Part shown: positions 3,364 through 19,892 of the stretch, piece after piece
Position numbering within the stretch: the stretch's first letter is position 1
How the letters are laid out: each line of letters starts with the position of its first letter
Source of the DNA: a virus
Taxonomy: Duplodnaviria > Heunggongvirae > Uroviricota > Caudoviricetes
DNA: 24,470 bases
Reading direction: 5' to 3' (one strand)
Virus record (IMG/VR): IMGVR_UViG_2909272501_000001
Made by a program: the position numbers and the translations under genes
Notes under the pieces: model-generated
What the model saw: only the letters and a program-made list of their open reading frames with translations
What the model was told of the DNA's origin: nothing
The model's database searches: none

Positions 3364-3377
3364 GGTGTTGTTCTCCT

Positions 3378-4289: not shown

Positions 4290-4569
4290 GCGTCCTGTCT
4301 CCCCGGTCTTTCTGCTGGGCGAGAAAATCACGGCACAGGCCTTTGGCTTTCAGCTCATTCAGCACAAAATCAATATCCTCATTCAGGTAGCTGAAAATAT
4401 GCGGAATGTAGAGCTGATGCAGGCCGGAGAGTTCACGGTGAATCAAATCACCCCCAACAAACTGGGATACGGCGCTGGCGCGGTTGAGCTTATGGTAAGC
4501 CTCAATGCTGAGGTGTTCACGGGCGTCATGACGCGCTGAGACGGTCTGAGGGGCTTTTTTATTACGCAC
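4282..4569 (-). CDS. Hypothetical small protein, 95 aa, GTG start; possibly the epsilon-equivalent of the P4 left operon
   Basis: ORF in operon context. GTG start overlaps the stop of the upstream ORF (GTGCGTAA). The epsilon assignment rests only on length and order, not on recognised sequence. Confidence 0.45.
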
Positions 4570-5161
4570 GGGACACCCCCATCACCGGCAGACGGGCAGC
4601 AAGGGAGAGCACATAGTCACGGACAAGGGAACGGCGGGCACTGCGTTCATCACCGGCGACGGTGCGAAGCATGCAGATACGGGGATGACGGTCTGCGCGA
4701 CGGACAGCCGCAAACACAAAGACAAATTCAGGGTGTGAAGGGGTAAGGGTCGTAGCCATAAGGCAACCTCCGATAACAGCATAAATGACGCTATCGCCGG
4801 AGTTTCCACGCTCGATGGCGATAGCCCAGACGGGGGTGGAAATACCGGCGTTATCGGAAACCGGCCAGCCCGGAGGCTGCCCCGCCTGAGCTACCATTGA
4901 CTCTGCGGTATAATGAGCGGACGCGGGCAGAATGCACGGAGTGCCATTTGCTCGACTGACCACACACCACACCATAATCTGGCGCTCTGTGGCGTTGATT
5001 GCGACACAAAAAAAGACGCATGGCGCGTCATATGTCGCCGATAACATACTCGGGTTTCCACGCCCGGCTGCCGATTTTGCGGCAGCGGAAAAACTATATC
5101 CGCAAATGCCGGAAAAAGGCAAGCCAGAAAAAGGGAGTTTTTGCAGAGCGGGCATCATCAT
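4562..5161 (-). CDS. Uncertain ORF (199 aa from the internal Met; 214 aa on the track) covering the position where P4 carries its kil/eta/cI immunity region
   Basis: Open frame whose stop overlaps the next gene's start, but the translation is low-complexity and several other frames are also open in this GC-rich stretch. May be a misread of small genes and/or an RNA locus. Confidence 0.2.
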
Positions 5162-5424
5162 GCGTCGTACCCCCGTTTGCGTCCGGCAATGCGTCCGGCC
5201 ATCCATGCGGTGACTTCAGAGTGCAGCCAGGCCACATTTTTACCGCCAAGACTCACCTGCGGCGGAAATTCCCCCTTACGGATGAGTTCGTAGATGGTCG
5301 AGCGTGACAGGCCGCACAGGTGCATCACTTCCGGAAGACGCAAAAAACGCTCCTGTGTGATGTCCGGCAGCGGCATCAGTGGCGTCACAGGGGCAGGAGA
5401 CGGGGAAGAAAAAACAGCTTGCAT
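5158..5424 (-). CDS. AlpA/Vis-like small DNA-binding regulator (88 aa)
   Basis: Motif ...[29 protein letters not shown]... is typical of the AlpA/excisionase-like HTH family. RBS GAGG 8 nt upstream of the ATG at 5424. Same position and length as what I recall as P4 orf88 (vis). Confidence 0.65.
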
Positions 5425-5702
5425 CGGGCTACCTCGTTAATGTCCATACAGCACCGGATAAGTCCGTCCGGCTTCGGGTAGCGCTTTATTTTGTGAATAT
5501 TTTTGGCAGACGCAACAGGGGGGATTTGTTCCGGCAGCCTTACAATGGCTGTGTGTTTTTTGCACATCAGCGCCAGATAGCTTTAAAACGCTCTGGAAGG
5601 AGCTGGAAAAAATTATAGTGAAATACAAATTGTTTTTTCTTATTTATTTCAGTTAATTAATAAAAATAAAAAGTAATAAACAGCACAAAAAGTCCATGAA
5701 CG

Positions 5703-5806
5703 GGTGAACAGTGGTGAACAGACGGTGAACAGTCATTACTGCGATTGTTCACCCTTTAACTTACTGTATTACTTATCTTTTTTCTTATGGTGAACAGAGG
5801 TGAACA
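5703..5806. repeat. ori-like iteron cluster: six copies of GGTGAACA/TGTTCACC
   Basis: Octamers at 5703-5710, 5713-5720, 5724-5731, 5746-5753 (inverted), 5789-5796, 5799-5806, inside an AT-rich intergenic region ~4.8 kb from the crr-like repeats. P4 ori1 lies about 4.5 kb from crr and carries the same octamer (established knowledge). Confidence 0.65.
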
Positions 5807-5885
5807 GTAAAATATAAAAAAACAAACAGTAAGCCGGTTTTTCCTGCGACCTTTTCCTGGCTTGCCGGTCTGAGGATGAGTCTCC

Positions 5886-5903
5886 TGTGTCAGGGCTGGC
5901 ACA
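5886..5903 (+). promoter_or_regulatory. TGT-N12-ACA dyad; candidate Ogr/Delta-type activator site of the late promoter upstream of sid
   Basis: TGT (5886-5888), 12 nt, ACA (5901-5903), located ~75-90 bp upstream of the sid ATG. P2/P4 late promoters carry this dyad upstream of the -35 region (established knowledge). Confidence 0.4.
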
Positions 5904-5975
5904 TCTGCAATGCGTCGTGTTGTTGTCCGGTGTACGTCACAATTTTCTCAACCTGAAGTGACGAGGAGCCGGAAA

Positions 5976-6710
5976 ATGTCTGACAACACCATCCCTGAAT
6001 ATCTGCAACCCGCACTGGCACAACTGGAAAAGGCCAGAGCCGCCCACCTTGAGAACGCCCGCCTGATGGATGAGACCGTCACGGCCATTGAACGGGCAGA
6101 GCAGGAAAAAAATGCGCTGACGCAGGCCGACGGAAACGACGCTGACGACTGGCGCACGGCCTTTCGTGCAGCCGGTGGTGTCCTGAGCGACGAGCTGAAA
6201 CAGCGCCACATTGAGCGCGTGGCACGCCGGGAGCTGGTACAGGAATATGACAATCTGGCCGTGGTGCTGAATTTTGAACGCGAACGCCTGAAAGGGGCGT
6301 GTGACAGCACGGCCACCGCCTACCGGAAGGCACATCATCACCTTCTGAGTCTGTATGCAGAGCATGAGCTGGAACACGCCCTGAATGAAACCTGTGAGGC
6401 GCTTGTCCGGGCAATGCATCTGAGCATTCTGGTACAGGAAAATCCGCTCGCCAACACCACCGGGCATCAGGGCTACGTCGCACCCGATAAAGCTGTCATG
6501 CAGCAGGTGAAATCATCGCTGGAACAGAAAATAAAACAGATGCAAATCAGCCTCACCGGCGAGCCGGTTCTCCGGCTGACCGGACTGTCAGCGGCAACAC
6601 TTCCGCACATGGATTATGAGGTGGCAGGCACACCGGCACAGCGCAAGGTGTGGCAGGACAAAATAGACCAGCAGGGAGCAGAGCTTAAGGCCAGAGGACT
6701 GCTGTCATGA
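5976..6710 (+). CDS. sid: Sid, capsid size determination (external scaffold) protein
   Basis: 244 aa from the ATG at 5976 preceded by RBS GAGGAG (track ORF starts earlier at 5910). Length matches recalled P4 Sid. Followed by delta and psu in P4 order. Stop overlaps the delta start (ATGA). Confidence 0.85.
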   Translation: MSDNTIPEYLQPALAQLEKARAAHLENARLMDETVTAIERAEQEKNALTQADGNDADDWRTAFRAAGGVLSDELKQRHIERVARRELVQEYDNLAVVLNFERERLKGACDSTATAYRKAHHHLLSLYAEHELEHALNETCEALVRAMHLSILVQENPLANTTGHQGYVAPDKAVMQQVKSSLEQKIKQMQISLTGEPVLRLTGLSAATLPHMDYEVAGTPAQRKVWQDKIDQQGAELKARGLLS

Positions 6711-7207
6711 TTTACTGCCCGTCGTGTGGACATGTTGCTCACACCCGTCGCGCACATTTCATGGACGATGGCACCAAGATAATGATTGCACAGTGCCGGA
6801 ATATTTATTGCTCTGCGACATTTGAAGCGAGTGAAAGCTTTTTCTCTGACTGTAAAGATTCAGGAATGGAATACATTTCAGGCAAACAGAGATACCGCGA
6901 TTCACTGACGTCAGCCTCCGGCAGTATGAAACGCCCGAAAAGAATGCTTGTTACCGGATATTGTTGTCGGAGATGTAAAGGCCTTGCACTGTCAAGAACA
7001 TCGCGGCGTCTGTCTCAGGAAGTCACCGAGCGTTTTTATGTGTGCACGGATCCGGGCTGTGGTCTGGTGTTTAAAACGCTTCAGACCATCAACCGCTTCA
7101 TTGTCCGCCCGGTCACGCCGGACGAACTGGCAGAAAGCCTGCATGAAAAACAGGAACTGCCGCCAGTACGCTTAAAAACACAATCATATTCGCTGCGTCT
7201 GGAATGA
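6707..7207 (+). CDS. delta: Delta, Ogr-family zinc-finger late transcription activator (tandem Ogr-like domains)
   Basis: 166 aa. Two Cys4 Ogr-type motifs: CPSCGH...CRNIYCSATF and CCRRCKG...CTDPGCGLVF. Confidence 0.85.
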   Translation: MIYCPSCGHVAHTRRAHFMDDGTKIMIAQCRNIYCSATFEASESFFSDCKDSGMEYISGKQRYRDSLTSASGSMKRPKRMLVTGYCCRRCKGLALSRTSRRLSQEVTERFYVCTDPGCGLVFKTLQTINRFIVRPVTPDELAESLHEKQELPPVRLKTQSYSLRLE

Positions 7208-7280
7208 GGGCTGCCGGTTAACACCGGCCGTCGCCGCACACCGTATTTTTATTCTTCAGCATGATGAGAAAGAGATAACG

Positions 7281-7853
7281 ATGGAAAGCACAGCCTTACA
7301 GCAGGCCTTTGACACCTGTCAGAATAACAAAGCAGCATGGCTGCAACGCAAAAATGAGCTGGCAGCGGCCAAACAGGAATATCTGCGGCTTCTGTCAGGA
7401 GAAGGCAGAAACGTCAGCCGCCTGGACGAATTACGCAATATTATCGAAGTCAGAAAATGGCAGGTGAATCAGGCCGCCGGTCGTTATATTCGTTCGCATG
7501 AAGCCGTTCAGCACATCAGCATCCGCGACCGGCTGAATGATTTTATGCAGCAGCACGGCACAGCACTGGCGGCGGCACTGGCACCGGAGCTGATGGGCTA
7601 CAGTGAGCTGACGGCCATTGCCCGAAACTGTGCCATACAGCGTGCCACAGATGCCCTGCGTGAAGCCCTTCTGTCCTGGCTTGCGAAGGGGGAAAAAATT
7701 AATTATTCCGCACAGGATAGCGACATTTTAACGACCATCGGATTCAGGCCTGACGCGGCTTCGGTGGATGACAGCCGTGAAAAATTCACCCCTGCGCAGA
7801 ACATGATTTTTTCGCGTAAAAGTGCGCAACTGGCATCACGTCAGTCTGTGTAA
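7281..7853 (+). CDS. psu: Psu, polarity suppression / capsid decoration protein
   Basis: 190 aa, N-terminus MESTALQQAFDTCQNNKAAWLQRKNELAAA..., last gene of the sid-delta-psu operon. Confidence 0.85.
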   Translation: MESTALQQAFDTCQNNKAAWLQRKNELAAAKQEYLRLLSGEGRNVSRLDELRNIIEVRKWQVNQAAGRYIRSHEAVQHISIRDRLNDFMQQHGTALAAALAPELMGYSELTAIARNCAIQRATDALREALLSWLAKGEKINYSAQDSDILTTIGFRPDAASVDDSREKFTPAQNMIFSRKSAQLASRQSV

Positions 7854-7888
7854 AATTCCCCGAAAATCCGCCCGTTTTTACTGAAAAA

Positions 7889-7972
7889 AGCCATGCATCG
7901 ATAAGGTGCATGGCTTTGCATGCGTTTCCCTGCCTCATTTTCTGCAGACCGCGCCATTCCCGGCGCGGTCTG
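7889..7972 (+). other. Two strong hairpins after psu (7889-7915, 9-bp stem; 7945-7972, 11-bp perfect stem); possible terminator and/or packaging-region structure
   Basis: AGCCATGCA...TGCATGGCT and CAGACCGCGCC...GGCGCGGTCTG inverted repeats. Only the first is followed by a weak T-rich tract. Confidence 0.3.
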
Positions 7973-8017
7973 AGCGTGTCAGTGCAACTGCATTAAAACC
8001 GCCCCGCAAAGCGGGCG

Positions 8018-8036
8018 GGCGTGGCGGGGGGAGCAT
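8018..8036. other. cos-like site (candidate cohesive-end sequence)
   Basis: GGCGTGGCGGGGGGAGCAT matches 15 of 19 positions of the P2/P4 cohesive end as I recall it (GGCGAGGCGGGGAAAGCAC). It sits right after psu, where cos lies in P4, next to a GC-rich imperfect palindrome (7999-8019). Confidence 0.35.
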
Positions 8037-8118
8037 TGCGCGCTAAGGCTGATATTATAATTTTCTTTAATTCTATTTGGTATTTTGGCTTTATTCGTCA
8101 GAAGGAACGTTTAGAAAT

Positions 8119-8146
8119 AGACCACTACAATGGATTGTAGCGGTCT
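8119..8146 (-). terminator. Hairpin terminator candidate ending the int-RT-partner operon
   Basis: 12-bp inverted repeat AGACCACTACAA/TTGTAGCGGTCT (one G-U-compatible mismatch), 4-nt loop, ~10 nt downstream of the partner gene stop, followed by a modest T-rich tract on the minus strand. Confidence 0.4.
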
Positions 8147-8155
8147 GCATGATAT

Positions 8156-8896
8156 CTAGCGTTGCATTTCAGTTACTATGAAATTTTCTTCTGTAATAGA
8201 ATTCATTATCTCAAAGTACAATTCTTCAGGTTGAATAAACGCCAACTCTTTGCAAAGGTTGACAATGGTATCACTATAAGTGATACCCATCCGAGGATTG
8301 AAAAGCTCAAATCTCTTGATGTTTCTTTTGTTTTTTGAGTAAAAGTTTAAAGTGAAATATATTAGCACCTGTCTAAGATCGTAAACACTAAACTTCCTAT
8401 CTCCTGATTTTATTTCCACAAGAACATTTGAATAATAAATATCGCCATATGAATTATTTATTACTCCGCATCCATCGAATTGTGGAGACACTTCAATTTG
8501 GTTTTCCATTCCATATCGAGACAAAATGTTTCTTGCTATTTCCCTTATGGCATTGTACTCAACCATGCTTAAGGGTAGCTTGAAGTTAGAACCGTAAGCG
8601 AACCGCTGTAGATATTCTTTTGTTTTTTCAAAAACAACCTGAAAATCAGCATTATGGAAGATATCATGTGCTGAAAGAATATTTCTGTCTAACGAATCAT
8701 TCTGTATTGCCCTATATAAATTAAATGCGCACTCATTAACAAAGACGTTATTTGACCTATTAGCGCAGTCATCTAGAGGAGGATAAACGTCCTCGATGAG
8801 ACTGCCGTTAATGATGCGTATGAAATTATTAGCATTTGGAAGCAATTGATTCCAAAATGAAGTGAATTTTCGAGAAAACGTTAATTCAGATATCAT
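8156..8896 (-). CDS. Hypothetical 246-aa protein, partner of the reverse transcriptase; possible nuclease-like effector
   Basis: ATG overlaps the RT stop (ATGA at 8893-8896), with RBS GAGGA inside the RT 3' end. Very AT-rich. Segment GDIYYSNVLVEIKSG could be a D...ExK (PD-(D/E)xK-like) core, but this is unverified. Confidence 0.75.
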   Translation of the reverse strand: MISELTFSRKFTSFWNQLLPNANNFIRIINGSLIEDVYPPLDDCANRSNNVFVNECAFNLYRAIQNDSLDRNILSAHDIFHNADFQVVFEKTKEYLQRFAYGSNFKLPLSMVEYNAIREIARNILSRYGMENQIEVSPQFDGCGVINNSYGDIYYSNVLVEIKSGDRKFSVYDLRQVLIYFTLNFYSKNKRNIKRFELFNPRMGITYSDTIVNLCKELAFIQPEELYFEIMNSITEENFIVTEMQR

Positions 8897-10521
8897 AGCG
8901 CATCCTCAAGATTTCTTGCGGTATGCCTTTTACTTGCCCAATCCCTGTAAATCACCTCTACAAAGTTGAATGTTTTCTTATTATGCTCTCTCCAGTGCCG
9001 TCCTTCATCACCTAAGATGTAACTGGAAACGATCAATAGTCTTCTCTGCAACGGATGCATTGCAGAGAAATTTTTTTTGATATCAGAAAGCCATGCGTAA
9101 GAATTAATTTTTGCCATTGACTGTGTAACTATGTTCTTGACTAAGATGCTTTCTGGATTGTTATTGTATATTTCACTAAGGATTAGGGTGGATTTTTCTG
9201 AATTTTCTTTTGAGAGCATTCGGGCTACATAGGCTAAGTTGAGCTCAGTACTCAAAATATATGAATCTTGTTTAATTAGTGCAGTTATTTTATCAAGAAT
9301 AATATCTTTGGTTTCTGTGCTTAATTTTTGCCAGTTGGAGTTAGCTACTTGAATTATAGTTGTAAATATTGGATATAACTCATGCAAGTTATTAAACATT
9401 ACTTTGAAAGCACTACTTATTATTTCATCTGATGTTGCTGAGAATGCCTTTATCAAATGCTTGCTAAAAGATTGGTTAATTTTTGATTTTTGTAACTCAC
9501 TACTCAGCATAGCTAACAAGTCAAAATCTTTTAAAGATTCCTTTATCTCTTCATATTCCTCTATCGCATTTGCTGAGTAAGGATCGAATCTTATAGGAAG
9601 ACTCATAAATTTAGCCTTCATAGGAGATTCTTCATCTTCATCATTACCATGCAACTTAGCTTTAGTTACTGAAAGGAACTCTTCTTTAGTAACAATATTG
9701 GTTTTTTGTTTCTGTAAAGTTAGCCCTTCATTTTCCATCAGTTTTTTACTAAGCAAAGTTAAAATCTTATGAGCATCCTCTCTAGAGTTACAAAAAATAA
9801 CAAAGTCGTCGACATAACGCTTATAGTTGATTCTATTCATAGACAATAATTTATCAATAGAATCTAGAGCTAGTTCTGCTAATATTCTAGAGGCAGGACA
9901 TCCAACTGGTACTCCATATGATTTTGTTTCACTAAATGTCTGTAGTAATTTCTTGATTTTCCCAGAGTAATCTTTATTGGGGTCGACTCTATCTAACGCA
10001 TTTTCTAAACGGTGGTGATAAATACGCGGATAGAAATCTGCTATATCGCATGTAAGTACATACTTTATTTCATCGTTAGAACATTCAGAGATACTGTCTT
10101 CTTGATATTTTCTCCAAGAGATCTCTTTATCAAAAAGAGAACCATCAGCAAGGTTTGGTTTAAAGCGATATGAATAAACCTGCGTTTTAGTAGATCTATT
10201 CCTTTCAATATCATCAGCGATTTTTAAAACTAACCCAAGAAAAAAAGCATTCCAGAATGGATCAATTTGGGTCGCCCACCTGTAACCATAATAACCAATA
10301 CTTGAAAAGCTATTAATTATGTTTGGTGGAATCTCGATCCTTTTATTTTCAAAGTCATTAAATGTTTGCATTAATGCAGTTTTTACTTTCTCCTTATCAT
10401 CTTCAAATAACCGACTTTCAAATGGGTAAGGGAAAATATCTGTATCGCCGTGCTTTATAATATTTTCCAATGCAAGCTCAAAGCAATTTTCTAGTTTACT
10501 ACTATCAAACTCGTTACTCAT
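8893..10521 (-). CDS. Reverse transcriptase, 542 aa, with ~230-aa alpha-helical C-terminal extension; UG/Abi-like defence-associated RT candidate
   Basis: RT motifs in canonical order: LTCDIADFYPRIYHHRL (motif A-like), SYGVPVGCPASRILAELAL (motif B'-like), KRYVDDFVIF (YVDD catalytic motif C), NEGLTLQKQKTNIV (motif D/E-like). RBS AAGGAGA; start overlaps the int stop by 8 nt. No retron-type VTG motif seen. Confidence 0.85.
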   Translation of the reverse strand: MSNEFDSSKLENCFELALENIIKHGDTDIFPYPFESRLFEDDKEKVKTALMQTFNDFENKRIEIPPNIINSFSSIGYYGYRWATQIDPFWNAFFLGLVLKIADDIERNRSTKTQVYSYRFKPNLADGSLFDKEISWRKYQEDSISECSNDEIKYVLTCDIADFYPRIYHHRLENALDRVDPNKDYSGKIKKLLQTFSETKSYGVPVGCPASRILAELALDSIDKLLSMNRINYKRYVDDFVIFCNSREDAHKILTLLSKKLMENEGLTLQKQKTNIVTKEEFLSVTKAKLHGNDEDEESPMKAKFMSLPIRFDPYSANAIEEYEEIKESLKDFDLLAMLSSELQKSKINQSFSKHLIKAFSATSDEIISSAFKVMFNNLHELYPIFTTIIQVANSNWQKLSTETKDIILDKITALIKQDSYILSTELNLAYVARMLSKENSEKSTLILSEIYNNNPESILVKNIVTQSMAKINSYAWLSDIKKNFSAMHPLQRRLLIVSSYILGDEGRHWREHNKKTFNFVEVIYRDWASKRHTARNLEDAL

Positions 10522-11698
10522 TCACATTCTCCTTAATAAAAATATAATCTGAATACCACTGCATCATATCACGGCGTTTATCAATATATTGAGCATGATT
10601 ATACGTACCTCTAATATTATTCTTATCTATATGAGCAAGCTGTATTTCTATCCAAGCCGAATCATATCCTTTTTCGTGGAGGATAGTAGATAAGGAATGT
10701 CGAAATCCATGACCAGTAAGTTTTCCACCATAACCAATACGCTTGATAACTTGGTTAATACTCGCCTCACTCATAGGCTTGTTCGGATCGTTCCGCCCCG
10801 GAAAAACATAACTATACTTCCCTGTCATCATCTTGAGTTCATTTAGCAAATCTAACGCTTGAGTCGACAAAGGCACAAGGTGTGATCTGCGCATTTTCAT
10901 CCTTTCAGCAGGAATTTCCCAAATAGCGTTATCTAAATCAAATTCTGACCATAATGCCGCACGTAATTCGATGGTTCTAACACCTGTAATCATGAGCAAT
11001 TTCGTGGCAATCAGGACAAGCCGACTTCCGGTATATCCGTTTAAGGCGCGAAGAAAATCAGGTATCTCATTAGCCTTTAAGAACGGGAAATGATTTGATT
11101 GGTGTACATTGAGGGCGCTTGAAAGATCCGCAGCAGGGTTAAACTCAGCCCTTCCAGTAGCAATGGCATAGCGGAAAACTTCTGAGCATCGCTGCCGAAC
11201 TTTGCGCATTTTTTCTAATGCACCGCGCTTTTCGATTTTACGCAGCACATTAAGCAGTTCTAGCGGTTTAATCTCTCCCACTGGCCTTGTTCCCACATAA
11301 GGAAAAATGTCGTTCTTAAACGCTTCCATGATGTCTGATGCATATCCCGCCGACCATTTGGTAGACTTCTGTTGATGCCACTCTCTGGCTATCTTTTCGA
11401 AGGCGTTCTCTGACTCTGTTTGCAGAGCCAGCTTTTGCTCTTTTCGAACCTCACTAGGGTTCTTTCCTTCTGCCACAAGTTTTCGAGCTTCATCACGACG
11501 GGAACGAGCATCAGCAAGAGTGATCGTTGGGTAAACACCAAGCGAGATCATTTTGGGTTTACCGGCATAGCGATAACGAAATCGCCAGCTTTTACTTCCA
11601 TTTGGCTCTACAAGTAAAGACAACCCTTGCCCATCCCCAAGTGTATAGGCTTTAGCTTCAGGTTTAGCACGGCGAATCTGCATATCATTTAGGGGCAT
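10514..11698 (-). CDS. int: P4-type (DUF4102-family) tyrosine integrase
   Basis: 394 aa. N-terminal ...RRAKPEAKAYTLGDGQGLSLLVEPNGSKSWRFRYRYAGKPKMISLGVYP... is characteristic of P4/CP4-57-type integrases. Catalytic R...HxxR...H...Y residues (GVRTIEL, GHGFRHSLS, LAHIDKN..RGTYNHAQY). Confidence 0.88.
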   Translation of the reverse strand: MPLNDMQIRRAKPEAKAYTLGDGQGLSLLVEPNGSKSWRFRYRYAGKPKMISLGVYPTITLADARSRRDEARKLVAEGKNPSEVRKEQKLALQTESENAFEKIAREWHQQKSTKWSAGYASDIMEAFKNDIFPYVGTRPVGEIKPLELLNVLRKIEKRGALEKMRKVRQRCSEVFRYAIATGRAEFNPAADLSSALNVHQSNHFPFLKANEIPDFLRALNGYTGSRLVLIATKLLMITGVRTIELRAALWSEFDLDNAIWEIPAERMKMRRSHLVPLSTQALDLLNELKMMTGKYSYVFPGRNDPNKPMSEASINQVIKRIGYGGKLTGHGFRHSLSTILHEKGYDSAWIEIQLAHIDKNNIRGTYNHAQYIDKRRDMMQWYSDYIFIKENVNE

Positions 11699-11749
11699 GT
11701 GTATAGAATTCCAAAATCGAACAGGAACATATACATAATCCTATACACA
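11698..11749. repeat. Arm-type 9-mers near the int start: TGTGTATAG (11698-11706, inverted) and CTATACACA (11741-11749)
   Basis: Same 9-mer as at 613-633; the first copy overlaps the int start codon. Confidence 0.3.
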
Positions 11750-11861
11750 TTTAGTACTGGATTCTACTGGAAAGTTATGGACTAATACGAACAGTAAAAA
11801 CAAAAAATCTTTTATAAAACAGTGCGGTTATGGATAAATACGGATGTTTGAAGAAGTGGAG

Positions 11862-11881
11862 ATGGTGCCGATAATAGGAGT
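11862..11881. repeat. Right copy of the imperfect direct repeat; candidate att core shared by both elements
   Basis: ATGGTGCCGATAATAGGAGT, see 537-556. The first 9 nt (TGGTGCCGA) resemble the reverse complement of a tRNA 3' end, but no T-arm follows. Confidence 0.5.
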
Positions 11882-12023
11882 AAAACACTCGATTAATCTC
11901 GTGTTAATGCCATCACCTACGACCATTACTAATTGATTGAATCTGATAGAAAAATTATCATTTTCTATACCTTACAATCAATTTACACATTACAAACGCT
12001 CCGACACTTTAGCCGGAGATTTT

Positions 12024-13301
12024 ATGAGATACAAGCCTAACCAATACTTAATCTGTGATTCTTACGGTAACTACTATTTAAGGATCACGCTGCCTGTGTA
12101 TATGCAGCCCTTTTTTGAAGGAAAAAGGACGTTTGTCAGAAGTCTACACACAAGTAATCTTCGTGTGGCACGTCGAAAGCGTGATCAGATTGCAGATGAA
12201 TACCATTGCTTACGGGAGAGTGTTGCCCCTGTAAACAGCACAATAGAAAACACGCTGGAACTGTTACGCAGTAAGGCTAAATACGCCAAAACAGCTACCA
12301 GAATGCAAGATACAGCGTCTTCGTGTCCGTCATTGCTTAAAATTCTTGAAATCTACCTGACAATTAACAGCACGAAGAAGAAGCCAGCCACTTTAGCTAA
12401 GGCAAGAAAAGCGGTAGAGATGTTTCTCTCCTACCGTAAAAAGCCTGATATTGCATTGCAAGATGTAAGCCGCACCACTGTTACAGGCTGGATTGAACAC
12501 ATGCAAAAAACCCTTTCACAACAATCAATTGCAAATTATATCAGCCCAATGGTCCAGCTATGGGAGTTAGCTTCATCACGTTACCACGATGCGCCAGAAA
12601 GGGCGCTCTCCCCCTGGCGAGGGCATAGGCTTGATGTGGCACAAAGTAGAGAGAGCTACGAGGCATTTTCTAACAAAGAGCTATTGCAGGTGTTGCAAGT
12701 ATTTTCCGGTGATTCAGCAGAAAACAAAGAAATGACGGCTTTGTGTCTTATCGGTTTATATACAGGTATGCGGATCAATGAGATAGCAAGTATCACAATA
12801 GACGATGTGAAAGAGATCGAAGGTGTGCTGTGTTTTGAAATCACACAGGGAAAAACGAAAGCTGCGGCACGTCTTGTGCCTGTGCATAACCTTATCACTC
12901 CGTTGGTGTTGTCGCTGCGTGAAAAGCCTCACAATGGCTTTTTGTTCTATCACGCCAGCATTACAGAACGTGCTGACGGTAAACGCTCTACGTGGCATAC
13001 ACAACGATTTACAAGAGCTAAACGAAAGGCTTTAGGGGAAAAGGGAACAGAAAGGAAAGTGTTTCATTCTCTGAGACACGGAGTAGCACAGCTTCTTGAT
13101 CGAAATCAAATTCCAGAAGACAGGATCGCCCTTCTCCTGGGCCATACACGCGGCAATACAGAAACATTCCGCACATATAGCAAGAATGCAGCTTCTCCAG
13201 TAGAGCTTAAAAAATATATTGAGCTTTTACGCTACCCTGAAATAGAGAAAGGCTTATCAATCAATAAAAAATCAAATTTAAGGCGTAAAACAACGCCATA
13301 G
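12024..13301 (+). CDS. Second tyrosine recombinase/integrase (425 aa from the ATG at 12024; track ORF begins at a TTG at 11937)
   Basis: Catalytic signature GMRINEI (R), FHSLRHGVAQ (HxxR), LLGHT (H), TYSKN (Y). RBS GGAG 5 nt before the ATG. AT-rich. Confidence 0.75.
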   Translation: MRYKPNQYLICDSYGNYYLRITLPVYMQPFFEGKRTFVRSLHTSNLRVARRKRDQIADEYHCLRESVAPVNSTIENTLELLRSKAKYAKTATRMQDTASSCPSLLKILEIYLTINSTKKKPATLAKARKAVEMFLSYRKKPDIALQDVSRTTVTGWIEHMQKTLSQQSIANYISPMVQLWELASSRYHDAPERALSPWRGHRLDVAQSRESYEAFSNKELLQVLQVFSGDSAENKEMTALCLIGLYTGMRINEIASITIDDVKEIEGVLCFEITQGKTKAAARLVPVHNLITPLVLSLREKPHNGFLFYHASITERADGKRSTWHTQRFTRAKRKALGEKGTERKVFHSLRHGVAQLLDRNQIPEDRIALLLGHTRGNTETFRTYSKNAASPVELKKYIELLRYPEIEKGLSINKKSNLRRKTTP

Positions 13302-13381
13302 ACGTAATAAAGAGGCTTCAATATAGATTGATGCCTCTTTTATGATTATCTCGTTACAGAGCGTTTCATAGGCGTTTAAGG

Positions 13382-14059
13382 CTATTGTTTAAATACTGGC
13401 GTTACAACGTCTTGCCCTGGGCTTTTTTGATTTTTCTGTTCTGTTGTATTTACCTGCATTTTAACCTGTCCCCCTACAGATTTATTTGGTGCTGTTTTTA
13501 CAGCAATAGCATTAGTGGTGGCCTTAGAGACAAGACGAATTTGCTCAAAATCAAGAGTAAACAATAAGCTTTCGCTTGCTTCTTCTTCGTAAGACATGCC
13601 AACTAACACAACGTTGTCATAATTTTTTAACTCAGTGACAAGTAGGAAAGGTTGGCGACTGTCCATCAACTGATTTAGGTATTCAAGCATAAGCATACGT
13701 CGATTGCCGTTAATTCCCGCATTCTTAATCATATCGGGATTGAGTTTCAATACGGTTTCAGAGATACGCCCCTGTAATGTGAACTTGTTATTCCGTATTT
13801 GAACATGATCACTAACTTCTGATCCTGATTCGACGGCATAGCTTGTAACGTCTGCATTTCGGCTAACTTTCGTCGATTCCACGTTATCAAATGATAATGC
13901 CCGGTAGTCATTGTAAGCAGCATTTGCACCACTGCCGAGGTTAGAGGTAATAATCGCAAAGCCGTTACCCCCTTTAGTTGTTCTACCGTTGCTATCGTTG
14001 CTTGTGCTGTTGATTTTCGCCTCAGTCGGGCGACCAATGGTTAACGGACCCATTGCCAT
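13382..14059 (-). CDS. Hypothetical protein, 225 aa (possible virion-associated protein)
   Basis: ORF with RBS AAGGA; last gene of a co-oriented leftward block that includes capsid-like candidates. No recognisable motif. Confidence 0.45.
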   Translation of the reverse strand: MAMGPLTIGRPTEAKINSTSNDSNGRTTKGGNGFAIITSNLGSGANAAYNDYRALSFDNVESTKVSRNADVTSYAVESGSEVSDHVQIRNNKFTLQGRISETVLKLNPDMIKNAGINGNRRMLMLEYLNQLMDSRQPFLLVTELKNYDNVVLVGMSYEEEASESLLFTLDFEQIRLVSKATTNAIAVKTAPNKSVGGQVKMQVNTTEQKNQKSPGQDVVTPVFKQ

Positions 14060-14106
14060 AATTTGTAATCCTTATTTAAGGGGGCTAAACAGCCCCACAG
14101 TGATGA

Positions 14107-15948
14107 TTAATAGGTTGACCCGCCTGACATAACACCCAGCGTTAATAGCTTGCTAAACTCAGCGGAGGATGCCTTTGATTTGAAGTCGATAAATTCGCTC
14201 AATCGTCCGGTGTCTGATTCGATAGTTAGCGGCACTTCTGCATTTACTTGTAATTCTGGATTGAAGTTAATAACAGGTGCAAAGGTGTAAGAAGGAGTCT
14301 TGATAGCTTGTTGTGCTGCACTCTGTTTCAGATTTGCAATGTTTTGTCCTTCGAGAGTGTATTGATTTACAGCCTGCGCCCCGCCTACCGTTTCTTCTGG
14401 CGTAAACCAGCCTTTAATAGTGTTAAACAGGGAATTGCTGTTATCTGGCTTAGTTGTTCCGGTGCCAGCGCCTTTATATTGATCAGGAACGAGATTAGAA
14501 AGATTCTGTTTCATCCCTTCGTTAGACAGTGGCGGTGCATCACCTAAATTCTTCTGAATAGCTTCCGTCTTCTCGTCGTTTTTCATCAGCCAGTTGATTG
14601 CTTTCATTACGGCGTTAACCAATCCGCCGATAGCCTCGCCTAATTTGGTAAACATTGGCAGCATTGCAACCATACTCTTTTTGAACTCTTCAATCACAGC
14701 AGGATCGAGAGATTTCATAAAGCCATCAACAAAGGCGATCCCTTGTGAGTCAGAAAGCCCACTAAGTGCATTATTCAGTTCACGGAATTTAATAACGCTT
14801 TCCTGTTGTGCCTGTGTTACCCAGCGCCCTGATTCTCGTTGTTCTCGTGCTGATTGTTCCACTTCTTTAGCGGAGCGTGTCCAGTATTTAGAGGTGAGCA
14901 TCAAATCATCAGCCAGATCTTCCAGACGACTACCGATTTGTGCATCTGAATAGCCTTTAGCTACCATTCCCTGAACTGCTTTACTAACCAGACCAGCCGG
15001 ATTATCAGCAAAGTCTTTTAGATCCTTTTTAGTTAGGAATCCTTCATTCATTAAAGTATTGATGCCGCTATCGCCGCCCTTCCATTCTCCTTTACCAGTT
15101 TTCTTATCAACTACATATTCAGCTTCATCATAAGATTTGGTTGCACGTTCACGCACATCTTTCATCTGATCCAGATACTTACGTTTACCTTGTTCGCCCA
15201 TCATTGAATCAACGCCGTTTTTATACGCCCATTGTTCAACATCGTTCATCTGGTTAACGTCTACACCGCCCAGCTTCGCACGGCTATACAATTCACCCAG
15301 CGTTTCAGCATTCGCAAAGCTGTTAGTAACAAATTCAGAGGCTTTGCTCATAGCCATATACGTAGCGCCAGCGCCTAAGCCACCCAGCATAACAGCCGCA
15401 GCACCGCCGCCAATACTCCCGCTACCCTTAACAGGTGCATAGGCTTTAGCGTGAGCGTTACGATTGCCATTAATCTTACGTTGTTGCTGTTGTAGGCGTT
15501 TCATTTGGCTATTCATACGTGCCAGACTAATAGCGCCTCTTTCATATTGGAGGGCAATTTCTCTAGCCTGTGCAATAGCTTTATATTGTTCCGCTACAGA
15601 AAGACGGTGCATTGCACTAATGCTTGATCCAACGTCTAAAAGCTTTAATTCTGCCTTCTCTTTGCGTGCTGCCAGGGCTTTTTGTTCTCTTGCAACTACA
15701 CGTTGAGCGGCTAATTGTGCTTTAGCATTGGCTTTATCTGCCTGTGCTTGCTTTTTAGCAATATCGTCTACGTCTTTTTTTGCTTTAGCGGTTGATTGTT
15801 TATGTGTCTTAACACGCAATTCTATATCTTTCACCGCCGCCATTTGTTTACGAAGTTTTTCTACTTCTGCTTTTGCTTTCTCTAATGATGGTCGATCAAC
15901 CTGGAAGGTGACAACGTTTGATAAGCGGCTGACGTTAAGTTCTAACAT
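14107..15948 (-). CDS. Large coiled-coil / Gly-rich protein, 613 aa; tape-measure-like or other minor virion structural protein candidate
   Basis: N-terminal ~170 aa is Lys/Ala/Gln-rich with heptad-like periodicity, followed by a Gly-rich hydrophobic segment (GSIGGGAAAVMLGGLGAGATYMAM) and then a globular region. RBS AGGGA. Confidence 0.55.
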   Translation of the reverse strand: MLELNVSRLSNVVTFQVDRPSLEKAKAEVEKLRKQMAAVKDIELRVKTHKQSTAKAKKDVDDIAKKQAQADKANAKAQLAAQRVVAREQKALAARKEKAELKLLDVGSSISAMHRLSVAEQYKAIAQAREIALQYERGAISLARMNSQMKRLQQQQRKINGNRNAHAKAYAPVKGSGSIGGGAAAVMLGGLGAGATYMAMSKASEFVTNSFANAETLGELYSRAKLGGVDVNQMNDVEQWAYKNGVDSMMGEQGKRKYLDQMKDVRERATKSYDEAEYVVDKKTGKGEWKGGDSGINTLMNEGFLTKKDLKDFADNPAGLVSKAVQGMVAKGYSDAQIGSRLEDLADDLMLTSKYWTRSAKEVEQSAREQRESGRWVTQAQQESVIKFRELNNALSGLSDSQGIAFVDGFMKSLDPAVIEEFKKSMVAMLPMFTKLGEAIGGLVNAVMKAINWLMKNDEKTEAIQKNLGDAPPLSNEGMKQNLSNLVPDQYKGAGTGTTKPDNSNSLFNTIKGWFTPEETVGGAQAVNQYTLEGQNIANLKQSAAQQAIKTPSYTFAPVINFNPELQVNAEVPLTIESDTGRLSEFIDFKSKASSAEFSKLLTLGVMSGGSTY

Positions 15949-15982
15949 GCTAATTGTTTCCCTGTATTATGATTGTTGTTTA

Positions 15983-16180
15983 TTATTGTTTTTTAGAGCA
16001 ATAGTATTGAATTGCTTCGAAAGTGCTGCATCCAGTCTGAAAGACACGCTGACGCACATTATTTGCATCAATTTCTAAAAGGCGGCAAAGCGCCGATGTG
16101 TTTATAACTGATTCCTCGCTAATAGCTGCCAGTTCTTTTACAGATTTAAGAATTAATGCCTGTGAATTTTCTGCGTTCAT
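15983..16180 (-). CDS. Small hypothetical protein, 65 aa
   Basis: ORF between the 343-aa and 613-aa genes; no motif recognised. Confidence 0.3.
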   Translation of the reverse strand: MNAENSQALILKSVKELAAISEESVINTSALCRLLEIDANNVRQRVFQTGCSTFEAIQYYCSKKQ

Positions 16181-16335
16181 TGGTTTTCTCTCACATATAT
16201 ATTTTTATTTGGGTTTGTAGACAGTAGAAAAAAAATAAGGGCAAGAGACAGCGCATATTTTGCTTATATGATTATCCCTTACCCTTATTGCCCCGATTAT
16301 TTCCAGACGATGGGGAATCGTCTATTAACGCTTTA

Positions 16336-17367
16336 TTACGCAGCAGATCCGAAGATGATAGCTTGCGGAATGTTGTTTACTGGCAGATAAGATGTCTCAG
16401 TAACCACAGATGGGAATTGGAATTCATCCTTGATTAGATATTGGTGATGTAACACGGCATCTTGACCTAACTCAGCATGACGCACACCAACGCCGCTATG
16501 AAGCTGATAGCACTGTGCCGCTTTATCCATTACTGGAACAATTGCGAAACCGTTCTCTCCGATGTGAGCAACAATCTCAGGAAACATTGACACATCAATA
16601 ACAGTGATCCCACCAATCTGGAAAGAGTCATAGGCTGGGTTAGAATCAACCATACGGGTAAACAGGGCCGTAGCACTCGCATCACCTGCATATTTCACCA
16701 TGTCACTGATCAGCGGGTTAGATGACAAACCATCAGCAGCAGCGCCAGCAGCAAAGATAATTACACCAGTTCGCTTTGCAGCAAGACCAGACCCCAGCTT
16801 TTCACTCTGTAAGCGCACCGCTTTACGAATAGCAAGGAACGGGTTAACAGTAGTCGATGCAAAGTCGATAGCGGGTACCGTGGTTTTAGCCTGACCGTCG
16901 AGGAAGTCGAGATCACCTTGTCCGGCATATTCAGATTCAACTTTCAGGCCCAGCAGCGCGGTAATCAGATCCACTTCAACACGGTTTGCGTGTGAACGGT
17001 AATGTGCCTCAGAGAAATCATTAACCGCTACCAGCATAGCATCAGAACGGTTTGGATATTGGCGGCTGTATTGTTCCAGGTCACGAGAAGTAACAGCGTT
17101 AATACTGCCGACGTGTTTCATCTGGAAAAGTTTGTTTGACCATTCCTGACGTTTAGAGGCGTTCCAGTCGCTTTGAGCGTAAGGCGAGGTTTCCCCAGCT
17201 ACCTGCACAAACTGATCAATCAGGTCGGTAAGAAGAATGCTGTTTTCTGTATGATATTGCACATCGAACAGATCGAGATTAGTAATCAGGGTATTAAGTG
17301 CATTCTCATAAGCAAATGGAGTTACTACCGCAGTATTAACGCCAAAATATGTTGATAAATCATTCAT
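16336..17367 (-). CDS. Hypothetical protein, 343 aa; major-capsid-like candidate (speculative)
   Basis: Size and position directly after a ~125-aa decoration-like gene resemble the lambda D/E arrangement. No direct sequence similarity to lambda gpE that I can confirm by eye. Confidence 0.5.
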   Translation of the reverse strand: MNDLSTYFGVNTAVVTPFAYENALNTLITNLDLFDVQYHTENSILLTDLIDQFVQVAGETSPYAQSDWNASKRQEWSNKLFQMKHVGSINAVTSRDLEQYSRQYPNRSDAMLVAVNDFSEAHYRSHANRVEVDLITALLGLKVESEYAGQGDLDFLDGQAKTTVPAIDFASTTVNPFLAIRKAVRLQSEKLGSGLAAKRTGVIIFAAGAAADGLSSNPLISDMVKYAGDASATALFTRMVDSNPAYDSFQIGGITVIDVSMFPEIVAHIGENGFAIVPVMDKAAQCYQLHSGVGVRHAELGQDAVLHHQYLIKDEFQFPSVVTETSYLPVNNIPQAIIFGSAA

Positions 17368-17381
17368 TATTATTTTCCTTG

Positions 17382-17765
17382 TTAAGTCGTAGGGATCGCA
17401 AGTTCTTCATAACCAGCAATTACAAAGCCGAGAGATTGCAGTTTTGCAATAACACTTGCCTTTTCCATACTGTTAAATTCAATCCCATCTTCAGCCAGAA
17501 TAACGAAAGTAGGATGTGCAACCACTACGCTTTCCTGTCCTTCATAAGCCGGTTCAACCACTACGTGAGCAATATCAGAAGCGGTTGTTGCTTTGGTGCC
17601 ATCGGCTTTCAGCAAAGCCCCGACAATAAGATCGTCAGTGAGAGGTGAAGCCAGTTTGACGAGGCGATCTTGCAGCACTGGATCAGCAGCGTAAGCTACT
17701 ACCTTACAGCGTGAACGGGAATTATCCGCATTCACTGCTTTTAATTTTCCATATGGGTTAGCCAT
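17382..17765 (-). CDS. Hypothetical protein, 127 aa; head-decoration-like candidate (speculative)
   Basis: Small Ala/Val-rich beta-type protein starting MANPYGKLKAVNADN..., immediately upstream of the 343-aa gene. Confidence 0.45.
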   Translation of the reverse strand: MANPYGKLKAVNADNSRSRCKVVAYAADPVLQDRLVKLASPLTDDLIVGALLKADGTKATTASDIAHVVVEPAYEGQESVVVAHPTFVILAEDGIEFNSMEKASVIAKLQSLGFVIAGYEELAIPTT

Positions 17766-17769
17766 AAGA

Positions 17770-17967
17770 TTATTTTCCTTTCAGTTGTTTAATTTTAGAT
17801 TTAAGGGCATCAGCAAGACTAACCGCATCAGCCGATTTAAATAATTGAGCAGTGGTAGAACGAAGACTTTCGGGAGTAACTCCCAACAGTGCGGCAACCT
17901 TAATGAGGTTTTCATCACTAACAATCATCGTTTCCCCGTCTTTGCTGATAATCATTTCTTGTTTCAT
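17770..17967 (-). CDS. Small hypothetical protein (65 aa from the ATG with RBS AGGAAC; track ORF extends to 18009)
   Basis: ORF with plausible RBS; first gene of the leftward structural-like block. Confidence 0.3.
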   Translation of the reverse strand: MKQEMIISKDGETMIVSDENLIKVAALLGVTPESLRSTTAQLFKSADAVSLADALKSKIKQLKGK

Positions 17968-18948
17968 AAATAACGTTCCTGTTAGTGCCAGACAAATAAA
18001 AAGCCCCAATGCCGTAAGAGGTTCTGACCAGCAAAGGGGCTTTAACGTGCGGGCAATTACATAATTGATAAGTTAAACTATAAGAGGATTAAACATATCA
18101 GCAAATACACTTTTTAAATATACTTGATGATATGCTTAAAGGGTGAATAGATACTCCTGAAAACATGCTCTTAAGAAAACATGCGGAATCAATCAGGAAT
18201 ATCTATTCGGGGCGCGGTGGCTAACCGCTATCTTTCATGGTGTGGATGCACCAGTCAGATTTTAAGGAATCACTATTCCAATCTACTCACAGATTAAATT
18301 TTTAATAAGGATTAACTACACCAACAGTAATCTACCGTTTCAGAAAATCGTTTCACAACCAAAGATTATAGATCCGCATTCTATAAAACCCGTTTTGCTA
18401 TCAATATTTCCAAAGTTTATTGCACCATTCTTAGCTAAACTCTCTCTACTTGCGGCTAACGCTATGCAGATGATAGTTTTTTGACAACAACTTAATAGAT
18501 TATTCTGTTACTAACTTCCGTCATTAAATAAGAGTTTAATGATGTTAGTAAATAGTTATAAAATATAACTATCAGTGTAAGGCTCTTTAATGTTTTCGGA
18601 CAAAATAAGGAGCTTTAGGATAAGCATAGATGAAAAATAAGAGCGGGAAGGGCAAGGAGATAACACCTACCCGCTTTTATCAAAAATTAAGCACAATGCC
18701 TAACAACATTCATCAACACAACGTAGAAACAATCAACAATCAAAGAGGGAGTTATGATTATTCTAAAACTTCTTGATAGATGGAAGGTAATATTTGTTAG
18801 AGGTTAATGCCACTCAACCTTTGAGGCTATCACCTTCCATATGCAGGGATTTATGACAGTAGAAGGATTAACACCAACTAAAATCTTTTAATCTACCCCT
18901 AAAATTATTATATAACAAAATCATCATAAATGCAAATGATTTTCATTA

Positions 18949-19251
18949 TCATTTAGAGAAAATAGCACTTTTTGCTAAATCATTTACTAATTGCTGAATC
19001 TCTTCACTTGCAGCCTTTAACGTGCTGGCGGTGTCTGTGATGGTTTGAGTGCACATCTTGGCATCTGATAGCTCTAAATCGCTCACCAGAGAGACAAAAT
19101 CTTCTAAGCATACATTGAGCTTCATTAAGCTAATAACGCATTGAGAGAGCGTATAATCGCATAAATCTGAATAGGCTTGATTTATTCTTGTTTGTAGTGA
19201 GATAGTCAGATCTAAAAGTTGTTCCATTGCATTGCTAATATCTTCTTCCAT
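18949..19251 (-). CDS. Hypothetical acidic helical protein, 100 aa
   Basis: ORF; start ATG overlaps the stop of the upstream 81-aa gene. Confidence 0.4.
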   Translation of the reverse strand: MEEDISNAMEQLLDLTISLQTRINQAYSDLCDYTLSQCVISLMKLNVCLEDFVSLVSDLELSDAKMCTQTITDTASTLKAASEEIQQLVNDLAKSAIFSK

Positions 19252-19496
19252 TATGCGTATTCTCCTTGTAATGCATCATTAATCATATTCAATACGATGT
19301 TAAAAGGTGTCTTGAGCGTCAGCACTTCATCACGGTAACGTTCTAATGCTTCGTAGTCTTCTGTTTCTTTTGCCAGCCGGATTAACTCAGCATAGTTTTT
19401 TGCATCAGACAGGAGCATCTGAAATAATTGTGTTTCTTGAATATAGCCAATCATTATTTTTCCTTTTTCGAATATTTTCATTGGGCGCTTATACAT
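19251..19496 (-). CDS. Hypothetical protein, 81 aa
   Basis: ORF in the co-oriented operon downstream of the rep-like gene. Confidence 0.4.
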   Translation of the reverse strand: MYKRPMKIFEKGKIMIGYIQETQLFQMLLSDAKNYAELIRLAKETEDYEALERYRDEVLTLKTPFNIVLNMINDALQGEYA

Positions 19497-19511
19497 ACGC
19501 CCGTCTTTCTA

Positions 19512-19892
19512 TTAGTTAGAACGTTTGTTAGATGCGAGAGTGTCGATCAGGTGCTGCATCAGATCTGTTTCTGTAACGCCGCCTACCTGATTGTTGAACG
19601 AATTGAAGCCTGTATAGTGACGAAATGAGGTAAAGCCTAACAATTGCCATTTCTTCAATGTGCCAGGTTCTATAATCGTTGTCTTTCTTGTTCTGGGTTT
19701 GAAATACACACCATCACCCATTGATTGAATAATTTCTAATTCTTCGTTTGTAAGTGGTGGGCTGTTAGATTCTAAAATGAAGACTATCTCTTCACCTGCT
19801 TCTTCATTATTCTTATAAACTTGCTTTCTTACGTCGTTGAAGGTGTTCCCTTGCTCAATACGTTTTAAGTTGTTCTTTTTCTTTCTTCCCAT
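19512..19892 (-). CDS. Hypothetical protein, 126 aa, basic N-terminus
   Basis: ORF with RBS GAGGGA; N-terminal MGRKKKNNLKR. Confidence 0.45.
   Translation of the reverse strand: MGRKKKNNLKRIEQGNTFNDVRKQVYKNNEEAGEEIVFILESNSPPLTNEELEIIQSMGDGVYFKPRTRKTTIIEPGTLKKWQLLGFTSFRHYTGFNSFNNQVGGVTETDLMQHLIDTLASNKRSN

Follow-up and report, generated by a model that had tools for sequence, protein, structure and literature searches.

Divergent tyrosine integrase genes at the internal junction of a very probable tandem array of integrative elements at the Escherichia coli thrW gene

The thrW gene, which encodes tRNA-Thr(CGU), is a known integration hotspot of Escherichia coli, and the integration site of phage P4 is leuX. 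Tandem arrays of integrative elements at tRNA genes (tDNAs) are routine, and the Islander survey lists 125 arrays of two or more (PMC4383910). In the arrays described by Islander and TIGER (PMC4383910; PMC7192596) an intact tDNA lies at one end, co-oriented 3' fragments of it mark all junctions, internal as well as outer, and every unit has a tyrosine integrase of its own. Either remade core may receive a later element in such arrays, and a minor deletion within the fragment of the tDNA, located 3 bp upstream of the discriminator, is known for certain islands (PMC4383910). P4-like elements have been found beside other elements that have their own integrase (de Sousa and Rocha 2021, PMC8628076). 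Those P4-like satellites whose defence hotspot lies between int and psu (Rousset et al. 2022, PMC9122126; PMC8628076) have the order int, variable cargo, psu, delta, sid, immunity RNA region and alpha and carry C4 and isrK RNAs and TGTTCACC iterons; where such an element is alone, its integrase adjoins the tRNA gene.

The window analysed here, a stretch of 24,470 nucleotides (IMG/VR record IMGVR_UViG_2909272501_000001), lies in the thrW hotspot of E. coli, between yagP'/paoD and thrW-proA. It very probably shows two independent integrative elements, a P4-like satellite and a phage-like island of 13 kb that we call island 2, arranged head to tail as a tandem array in which both use the 3' end of thrW. 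Such an array is of an ordinary, well-known kind and implies no new mechanism. It shares all of the Islander/TIGER features listed above, including the small deletion in the displaced fragment, and differs from those arrays in nothing essential; it pairs integrases from opposite sides of the attP core, so that the int genes stand head-to-head at the internal junction. CP4-6 of E. coli K-12 is alike in using the same thrW and the same yagP/paoD flank and in having a tRNA-distal, inward-reading integrase (IntF) beside a displaced thrW fragment, but IntF is not the orthologue of the island 2 integrase, the cargo is unrelated, and the identity with thrW extends over at least 47 nt in CP4-6 versus 20 nt in island 2. 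The satellite matches the P4-like elements described above in gene order, RNAs, iterons and position when alone; unlike them it lies at thrW, carries DRT type 8 as cargo and, in the window, is displaced from the tRNA gene by island 2.

The chromosomal flank (positions 1 to 536, plus strand) comprises the end of paoD, a fragment of the LysR-type pseudogene yagP' and the native sequence that lies downstream of thrW, which ends ...TTGATTTTA; its RefSeq annotation was taken from identical sequence in AH25, W150 and WWCOL-256. The satellite and island 2 meet at the internal copy of the shared att core, at 11862 to 11881 on the minus strand. Its 20 nt, ATGGTGCCGATAATAGGAGT, represent the thrW 3' end (tRNA positions ~58-76) plus 1 nt, and its last 19 nt, TGGTGCCGATAATAGGAGT, match the final 19 nt of thrW exactly as their reverse complement; this 19-mer gave no chance matches in 100 shuffles. 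The satellite's left boundary is a damaged, outermost and tRNA-distal thrW 3'-end fragment at 537 to 553 on the minus strand (ATGGTGC-GATAATAGGA). The original prediction had treated 11862-11881 as the right copy of a direct repeat; the copy is real and so is its left partner, but the latter is non-identical, lacking one C (in the tRNA sense one G of G70/G71). This 1-nt indel hides the left copy from an ungapped repeat search and from a search allowing 3 mismatches, and k-mer and fuzzy searches recover it. The same deletion is found in the outer copy of A7 and of KSC9, in which the satellite is alone between the flank and thrW. Because of it, excision of the satellite may no longer be clean.

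ARAGORN found no intact tRNA in the window. We read the tRNA end of the array from near-identical genomes, which differ there, AH25 having thrW directly and WWCOL-256 a lambdoid prophage first. The original prediction had called for a search for a third repeat copy beyond the right edge, and such a copy does start 607 bp past position 24470. It is thrW itself in AH25 and W150, both of which match the window at ~100% identity, and a 46-nt thrW fragment in WWCOL-256, where the lambdoid prophage precedes thrW. In WWCOL-256 the outer-copy deletion is also 2 nt larger than in the window, and AH25 differs from the window by an ISEc12 in psu. IntF and a lambdoid prophage likewise use the thrW 3' end. 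The core copies at 537 and 11862 and the thrW gene beyond the edge all lie on the same strand and are thus direct repeats. Since every core copy is co-oriented with thrW, the array is a regular head-to-tail one and not a mirror-image integration. The earlier description of the junction as a mirror arrangement and not a tandem one must be given up; the mirror look comes only from where each int gene lies relative to its attP core.

The P4-like satellite is an 11.3-kb unit (554 to 11861, minus strand) recognised from Pfam, RefSeq products, Rfam and PADLOC. It contains the gene for the alpha primase-helicase (1030-3363, minus strand), C4/isrK immunity RNAs (4814-5099, minus strand; Rfam C4, isrK and c4-a1b1), a sid-like gene (5910-6710), delta (6707-7207) and psu (7281-7853), and its TGTTCACC iterons are grouped at 706-970 and 5703-5806. 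The sid assignment is putative and comes from position and a 'glycoprotein 3' label in strain A7. With an alpA-type regulator, int and the CI/C4 immunity RNA, these genes make up the core set by which P4-like satellites are recognised, and the element carries this set. The cargo at 8156-10521 (minus strand) is DRT type 8 (PADLOC Drt8 5e-166; RT-associated PD-(D/E)XK 6e-69). The satellite's int (10514 to 11698, minus strand, start codon 163 bp from the core) encodes a P4-family tyrosine integrase of 394 aa with the N-terminal arm-binding (DUF4102/Arm-DNA-bind_3), central and catalytic domains of that family (Arm-DNA-bind_3 9e-28, Phage_int_M 2e-35, Phage_integrase 1e-25). It matches NCBIfam PRK09692 at 8e-95 with 318 bits, below the 434-bit cut-off, and has about 46% identity with integrases of P22-like and other temperate phages.

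The second integrase gene, int2 (12024 to 13301, plus strand), lies at the tRNA-distal end of island 2 and reads inward. It encodes a DUF6538-type tyrosine integrase of 425 aa from its ATG. The domains found were DUF6538 (3e-09), Phage_int_SAM_5 (4e-07) and Phage_integrase (6e-17), with a PHROG integrase match at 6e-32. In alignments to XerA and to the integrase of a third element, E3 (below), the motifs TGMRINE (Arg), HSLRH, LLGH and RTY supply the catalytic residues of a tyrosine recombinase (Arg...His-x-x-Arg...His...Tyr). Int2 had been called a tyrosine recombinase at the outset, and the Pfam, PHROG and XerA-aligned evidence places it in a true integrase family; both int genes are labelled tyrosine-type recombinase/integrase in the RefSeq annotation of genomes with a 100%-identical junction. 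Int2 is not a relative of the P4-like integrase, with which no similarity was detectable outside the catalytic fold. Nor is IntF of CP4-6 its orthologue: the two share 24% identity over 152 aa (E = 3e-05) and the same architecture, but they belong to different lineages. Its catalytic domain is 32% identical to that of the E3 integrase. Among 50,697 phage records we found no close relative of int2, the best match having 28% identity, and neither int2 nor island 2 corresponded to a known phage in that set. Our literature search found no mention of DUF6538. The 13.2-kb unit has core copies at its ends and int2 as its only recombinase, from which we infer that int2 carries out both the integration of island 2 at the thrW core and its excision from there.

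The two divergent genes had been predicted to lie ~325 bp apart around the core, and the ORFs and a spacer of exactly 325 bp (11699-12023) confirm this. The spacer consists of a 163-bp P4-side arm, the 20-bp core and a 142-bp int2-side arm. The P4-side arm, the int-proximal arm of the satellite's attP (11699 to 11861), has candidate arm-type sites CTATACACA at 11698-11706 (minus) and 11741-11749 (plus), with matching copies in the opposite satellite arm at 613-621 and 625-633; these four are the exact copies in the window, and each is no farther than about 165 bp from one of the satellite's two ends. The int2-proximal arm of island 2 (11882 to 12023) includes a GGAG ribosome-binding site at 12013-12016, and a search for arm-type repeats of island 2 gave a single inverted pair of 10 bp (GCGTTTGTAA), no more than chance would produce. 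A promoter and terminator scan of the spacer found three promoter-like sites versus 1.8 expected, which is uninformative. When ten junctions were aligned, the core was invariant and the left and right arms were freely recombined: the P4-side arm accompanies its int gene in every junction context, and the int2-side arm stays with int2 regardless of what adjoins it on the left (chromosomal flank, P4-like int or E3 int).

Junctions were counted in 5,426 complete genomes, which are not phylogenetically independent. The window's chromosomal flank adjoins the CP4-6 end in K-12, and in 948 of the 5,426 genomes it adjoins thrW directly, which is the empty site. Flank, core and int2 are joined, at up to 100% identity to the predicted junction, in 277/5,426 genomes (CFSAN029787, for example, has island 2 alone between the flank and thrW); it had been asked whether the core copy would be missing from genomes with one element only, and at these int2 junctions it is present with no satellite on that side. 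The junction of P4-like int, core and intact thrW was found in 120/5,426 genomes, and the window junction (P4-like int, core, int2) in 28/5,426, in variants of 100%, 99.1%, 98.6% and 98.2%. Two of the 5,426 have the reverse order (flank, int2 with island 2, P4-like int, thrW), in which the int genes are outermost. Finally, 17/5,426 have E3, an element of 12.7 kb with a 645-aa integrase, inserted exactly at the core between both int genes, the elements on either side being otherwise ~100% identical to those of the window; E3 adjoins intact thrW in 24 genomes. Thus the two elements are separable and occur in either order, with the core co-oriented. The features by which Islander recognises tandem arrays were found here: an intact tDNA at one end (seen in the near-identical genomes), co-oriented 3' fragments at the junctions, a tyrosine integrase for each unit, and the units alone as well as the empty site. 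The claim that the int genes belong to two different elements with one target, each reading inward from the shared att core, is likewise borne out.

These findings are best explained by a simple model, which is very probably right. Each element would enter by a tyrosine-recombinase crossover in the common core of ~20 bp (the last 19 nt of thrW and one base), and each integration would remake the core at both ends, so that a later element may use either copy. The two elements have only the 20-bp core in common, each int gene carrying its own upstream arm of 142-163 bp. The satellite int lies on the attP side that ends up tRNA-proximal and int2 on the opposite side, which places it at the tRNA-distal end, as with IntF in K-12 CP4-6. 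With the satellite distal to island 2, the int genes are neighbours that diverge across one internal core copy; they diverge because the satellite attP has its int gene on one side of the core and the island 2 attP has int2 on the other. That each integrase recombines its own element, and the positions of the crossovers, we infer from presence and absence at the population level.

The order of arrival we leave undecided, because both orders predict the observed sequences; judged by its junctions the product would be identical either way, and the first arrival is not deducible from them. Insertion of the satellite at the att junction of an older island had been offered as the alternative to back-to-back elements; the common target stands, and the insertion is one of two histories with the same product. 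In that history, to which we give slightly under an even chance, island 2 was first in thrW and the satellite then entered its tRNA-distal core copy (flank, core, int2). The needed target is the junction present in 277 genomes at up to 100% identity to prediction, commoner than the satellite at thrW (120), and a crossover in ATGGTG, to the left of the 1-nt deletion, would yield both observed copies; however, the distal copy is without the tRNA-body side of attB (AAAACAC instead of CGAACC). The opposite history, whose probability we place just short of one half, has the satellite first and island 2 entering the regenerated intact thrW, displacing the satellite outward. Its target (P4-like int, core, intact thrW) exists in the 120 genomes, the P4-like element and E3 both occur distal to island 2, and island 2 adjoins thrW or the next thrW-proximal element in 45 arrays (28+17) versus 2, although these counts are clonally biased. 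Against it, A7 has island 2 distal, and its outer fragment bears the deletion that is typical of P4-like ends; the simplest reading is that island 2 entered a fragment copy there. Either site preference or clonal sampling could lie behind the bias of 45 to 2. Elements at icd are reported to use the recombinant att sites within arrays differentially (cited in PMC7192596), which is a possible explanation, but the bias could be clonal.

We consider it unlikely that the window junction is instead a scar left by the loss of E3, through excision, from a W150-type triple array. At least 13 genomes have both window elements at ~100% identity with E3 precisely at the core, and excision between the E3 core copies would recreate the window exactly (P4-like int arm, core, int2 arm), but entry of E3 into an existing window-type junction explains the data equally well, and window-type junctions occur in the several variants given above. 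A single composite element with two cooperating recombinases (a module of the pair or trio kind), or an inverted integration, head to head, is suggested by nothing but the adjacency and divergence of the two genes and is highly improbable, as each half is found alone between the same core copies, some genomes have the halves in the other order or split by a third element, the cores are direct and not inverted, and the two proteins are without detectable similarity outside the catalytic fold. The genes of a recombinase pair or trio are always together; these two are apart in hundreds of genomes and occur in other orders too.

The tandem array bears in practice on how elements in the thrW hotspot are delimited: two divergent int genes across a tRNA fragment mark a boundary between elements and not one element. 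One 20-bp core here serves at least three unrelated integrase lineages (P4-family, int2 and E3), and DRT8 and a type XII retron, both defence cargo, are shuffled at thrW by stacking.

The remainder of island 2 (13302 to 24470, minus strand; the 13.2-kb unit continues to the next core copy, about 606 bp beyond the window edge) includes a tail-tube-initiator/Dit-like gene (13382-14059), a tape-measure-like gene (14107-15948), a capsid-like gene (16336-17367), a RepO-like/wHTH gene (20027-20596) and iterons (21881-22026). It might, as a tentative and somewhat doubtful suggestion, be an undescribed phage satellite family or a tail-interference element directed against the ~150-kb lytic Stephanstirmvirinae myophages (phi92-, phAPEC8-like). 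The junction would then be two stacked satellites with P2-type and phi92-type helpers, and the 20-bp core a docking hub for defence cargo shared by at least three unrelated integrases, possibly with different crossover points. A literature search found nothing that links Phapecoctavirus to satellites of the island 2 type. As a possible satellite of lytic myophages, island 2 could outweigh the array finding itself. Its tape-measure and tail-tube-initiator pair has homologues in 204 phage records at about 37% protein identity, and a 355-bp patch of island 2 is 98.9% identical to a Phapecoctavirus gene.

The original prediction of two divergent integrase genes around an att-like core proved real, as both open reading frames and their integrase domains were confirmed. 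The P4-like int gene (10514-11698, minus strand) is an open reading frame for a 394-aa protein that, in a domain search, has the complete P4-family architecture (Arm-DNA-bind_3, Phage_int_M and Phage_integrase). The other gene, int2 (12024-13301, plus strand), belongs to a neighbouring unit that we call island 2; its start is the RefSeq ATG at 12024, and its 425-aa product carries DUF6538, a SAM-like domain and a Phage_integrase catalytic domain, matches a PHROG integrase family (6e-32), and has the Arg, His-x-x-Arg, His and Tyr motifs in alignments to XerA and another integrase. Kinship between int2 and the P4-like integrase was considered and rejected; the two proteins are unrelated beyond their fold. 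The 325-bp spacer between the genes contains the core, ATGGTGCCGATAATAGGAGT, at 11862-11881, whose 19-mer TGGTGCCGATAATAGGAGT matches exactly, as its reverse complement, the 3'-terminal 19 nt of the E. coli tRNA-Thr(CGU) gene thrW (the annotated tRNA of strain AH25), with 0 chance matches in 100 shuffles. The outer, left copy (537-553) reads ATGGTGC-GATAATAGGA and is one C short, and so escapes ungapped searches. An ARAGORN scan of the window returned no tRNA; thus both core copies are displaced 3' fragments.

The window lies in the E. coli chromosome at thrW, a recognised integration hotspot (PMC7545054), where the locus order is paoD, yagP' (a LysR pseudogene), the window elements and thrW-proA-proB. 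A search for a third repeat copy past the right edge had been proposed, and that copy is thrW itself: in AH25 and W150, which match the window at ~100% identity, thrW starts 607 bp past position 24470 and lies on the minus strand in the same orientation as the two fragments. The sole uninterrupted ~100% match, WWCOL-256, has a 46-nt thrW fragment in thrW's place, followed by a lambdoid prophage and then thrW, and this prophage between island 2 and thrW makes its array one of at least three elements. The prophage carries an RnlAB module.

We constructed the junction sequences expected if each element were present by itself and screened 5,426 complete E. coli genomes for them. The empty site, with the tRNA-distal chromosomal flank joined to thrW, is present in 948 genomes; flank-core-int2 is found in 277 (in several of them as a 100% match to the synthetic junction), P4-int-core-intact thrW in 120, the window's own P4-int-core-int2 junction in 28, and the reverse order, in which the right end of island 2 is joined through the core to the P4 alpha end, in 2. 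Inspection of individual loci confirmed island 2 on its own in CFSAN029787, the satellite by itself in KSC9, whose Int, RT and alpha proteins are identical, and the reverse order in A7, where each end of the array carries one of the two int genes. When ten junctions are aligned, a single core is invariant and the arms on both sides are exchangeable: the flank, the P4-int arm, the island 2 right arm and the arm of a third element's integrase on the left, and the P4 alpha arm, the int2 arm, the tRNA body and the third element's left arm on the right. This third, thrW-targeting element, E3 (12.7 kb; 14882-27581 in the W150 locus), sits exactly at the internal core between the two int genes in 17 genomes whose flanking elements otherwise match the window at ~100% identity, and directly on an intact thrW in 24 genomes; its attP and thrW have 42 nt in common. 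Its presence or absence between otherwise ~100%-identical elements demonstrates recent site-specific insertion or excision at the internal core in nature. E3 encodes a 645-aa DUF6538-type integrase, a type XII retron RT-TIR (6e-182), a TIGR04141 protein, a DUF4062 protein and a resolvase.

The reading of this locus as a mirror arrangement departing from tandem integration is not supported, since every core copy is a direct repeat co-oriented with thrW; the arrangement is an ordinary head-to-tail array in att polarity. In the P4-like element 163 bp separate int from the core, and int lies on the side that becomes joined to the tRNA gene upon integration; int2 lies 142 bp from the core on the opposite side and thereby lands at the tRNA-distal junction. 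Thus, when the satellite is the more distal of the two elements, the int genes are adjacent and divergent, and in the opposite order, as in A7, they lie well apart. The two have just the 20-bp core in common; whatever the context, the upstream arm of each int stays with its gene. A classical precedent for an integrase at the distal end exists at thrW itself: in K-12 CP4-6, IntF is likewise tRNA-distal and reads inward, next to the yagP flank seen here and a thrW fragment of 47 nt. IntF and int2 share just 24% identity over 152 aa. It is common for elements to be stacked in tandem at tDNAs (Islander counts 125 such arrays with two or more members; PMC4383910), TIGER/Islander resolves these arrays explicitly (PMC7192596), P4-like elements have been reported next to others that carry an integrase of their own (PMC8628076), and thrW is a known hotspot; the divergent-integrase observation is therefore correct and its explanation ordinary.

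Two histories of such an array are possible: the satellite entered the distal core copy of island 2, or the satellite was resident first and island 2 entered the thrW regenerated beside it. Both give the same final sequence, so junctions cannot decide the order of arrival. The bias in element order (28+17 versus 2 genomes) may reflect a site preference of one integrase, as att-site preferences are reported for arrays at icd in work cited in PMC7192596, or it may reflect clonal sampling. The 1-nt deletion of the outer copy (G70/G71 in the tRNA sense) is beside the P4-like alpha arm in the window, AH25, W150 and KSC9 and adjoins int2 in A7; the outer copy is undamaged in CFSAN029787 and K-12 and has a 3-nt deletion in WWCOL-256. 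The KSC9 fragment has an additional A-to-T change. The 1-nt deletion thus recurs across strains and beside different elements. It corresponds to a small deletion described in certain islands, 3 bp upstream of the discriminator (PMC4383910). We propose that the P4-like attP already bears the deletion; on this model P4-like Int would cross over 3' of it (within ATGGTG, plus strand) and the int2 crossover would fall on its opposite side. The segment in which the P4-family crossover takes place may end at the deletion.

Island 2 is the less ordinary item of the locus. It is a 13.2-kb unit extending from 11882 to ~606 bp past the window edge, with int2, tail-tube-initiator/Dit-like (13382-14059), tape-measure-like (14107-15948), capsid-like and RepO-like wHTH genes and iterons. 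The only matches to its tape-measure-like and tube-initiator-like proteins are two neighbouring genes of lytic myophages of the phi92, phAPEC8 and Phapecoctavirus types (phi92 gp134/gp135 type; ~37% identity, 204 phage records). A 355-bp stretch at 20283-20637, the N-terminal wHTH of the RepO-like gene, matches Phapecoctavirus Mt1B1_P17 at 98.9% identity. Four iterons of ~20-31 nt (TAACAnnnTTCTGTnGGGGT; 21881-22026) and a 30-nt inverted repeat (21492-21773) upstream of the RepO-like gene probably form an origin. Two AT-rich stretches of ~1 kb (17968-18948 and 21041-22454) have no annotated genes, and no Rfam family matched there. Our literature search found no element like island 2, and we offer as a lead, not a conclusion, that its gene content could be that of a so far undescribed satellite or parasite of lytic Stephanstirmvirinae myophages with genomes of ~150 kb.

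Its neighbour at 554-11861 is a complete P4-like satellite, with a 777-aa alpha primase-helicase, an Icd-like protein, an AlpA/HTH regulator, C4, isrK and c4-a1b1 RNAs, and sid-like, delta and psu genes. Eleven exact TGTTCACC octamers (expected 0.56), which we take to be the alpha-binding iterons of P4 ori and crr, form two clusters (706-970 and 5703-5806), the first inside a 121-nt direct repeat (673-793 / 855-975). Four exact CTATACACA repeats, restricted to the arms beside the two satellite ends, are candidate arm-type Int sites. The variable psu-int hotspot holds a DRT type 8 defence pair (8156-10521, minus strand), comprising a Drt8 reverse transcriptase (5e-166) and an RT-associated PD-(D/E)XK nuclease (6e-69). 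A Gabija-like nuclease and a UvrD helicase occupy this slot in strain A7, and psu is interrupted by ISEc12 in AH25.
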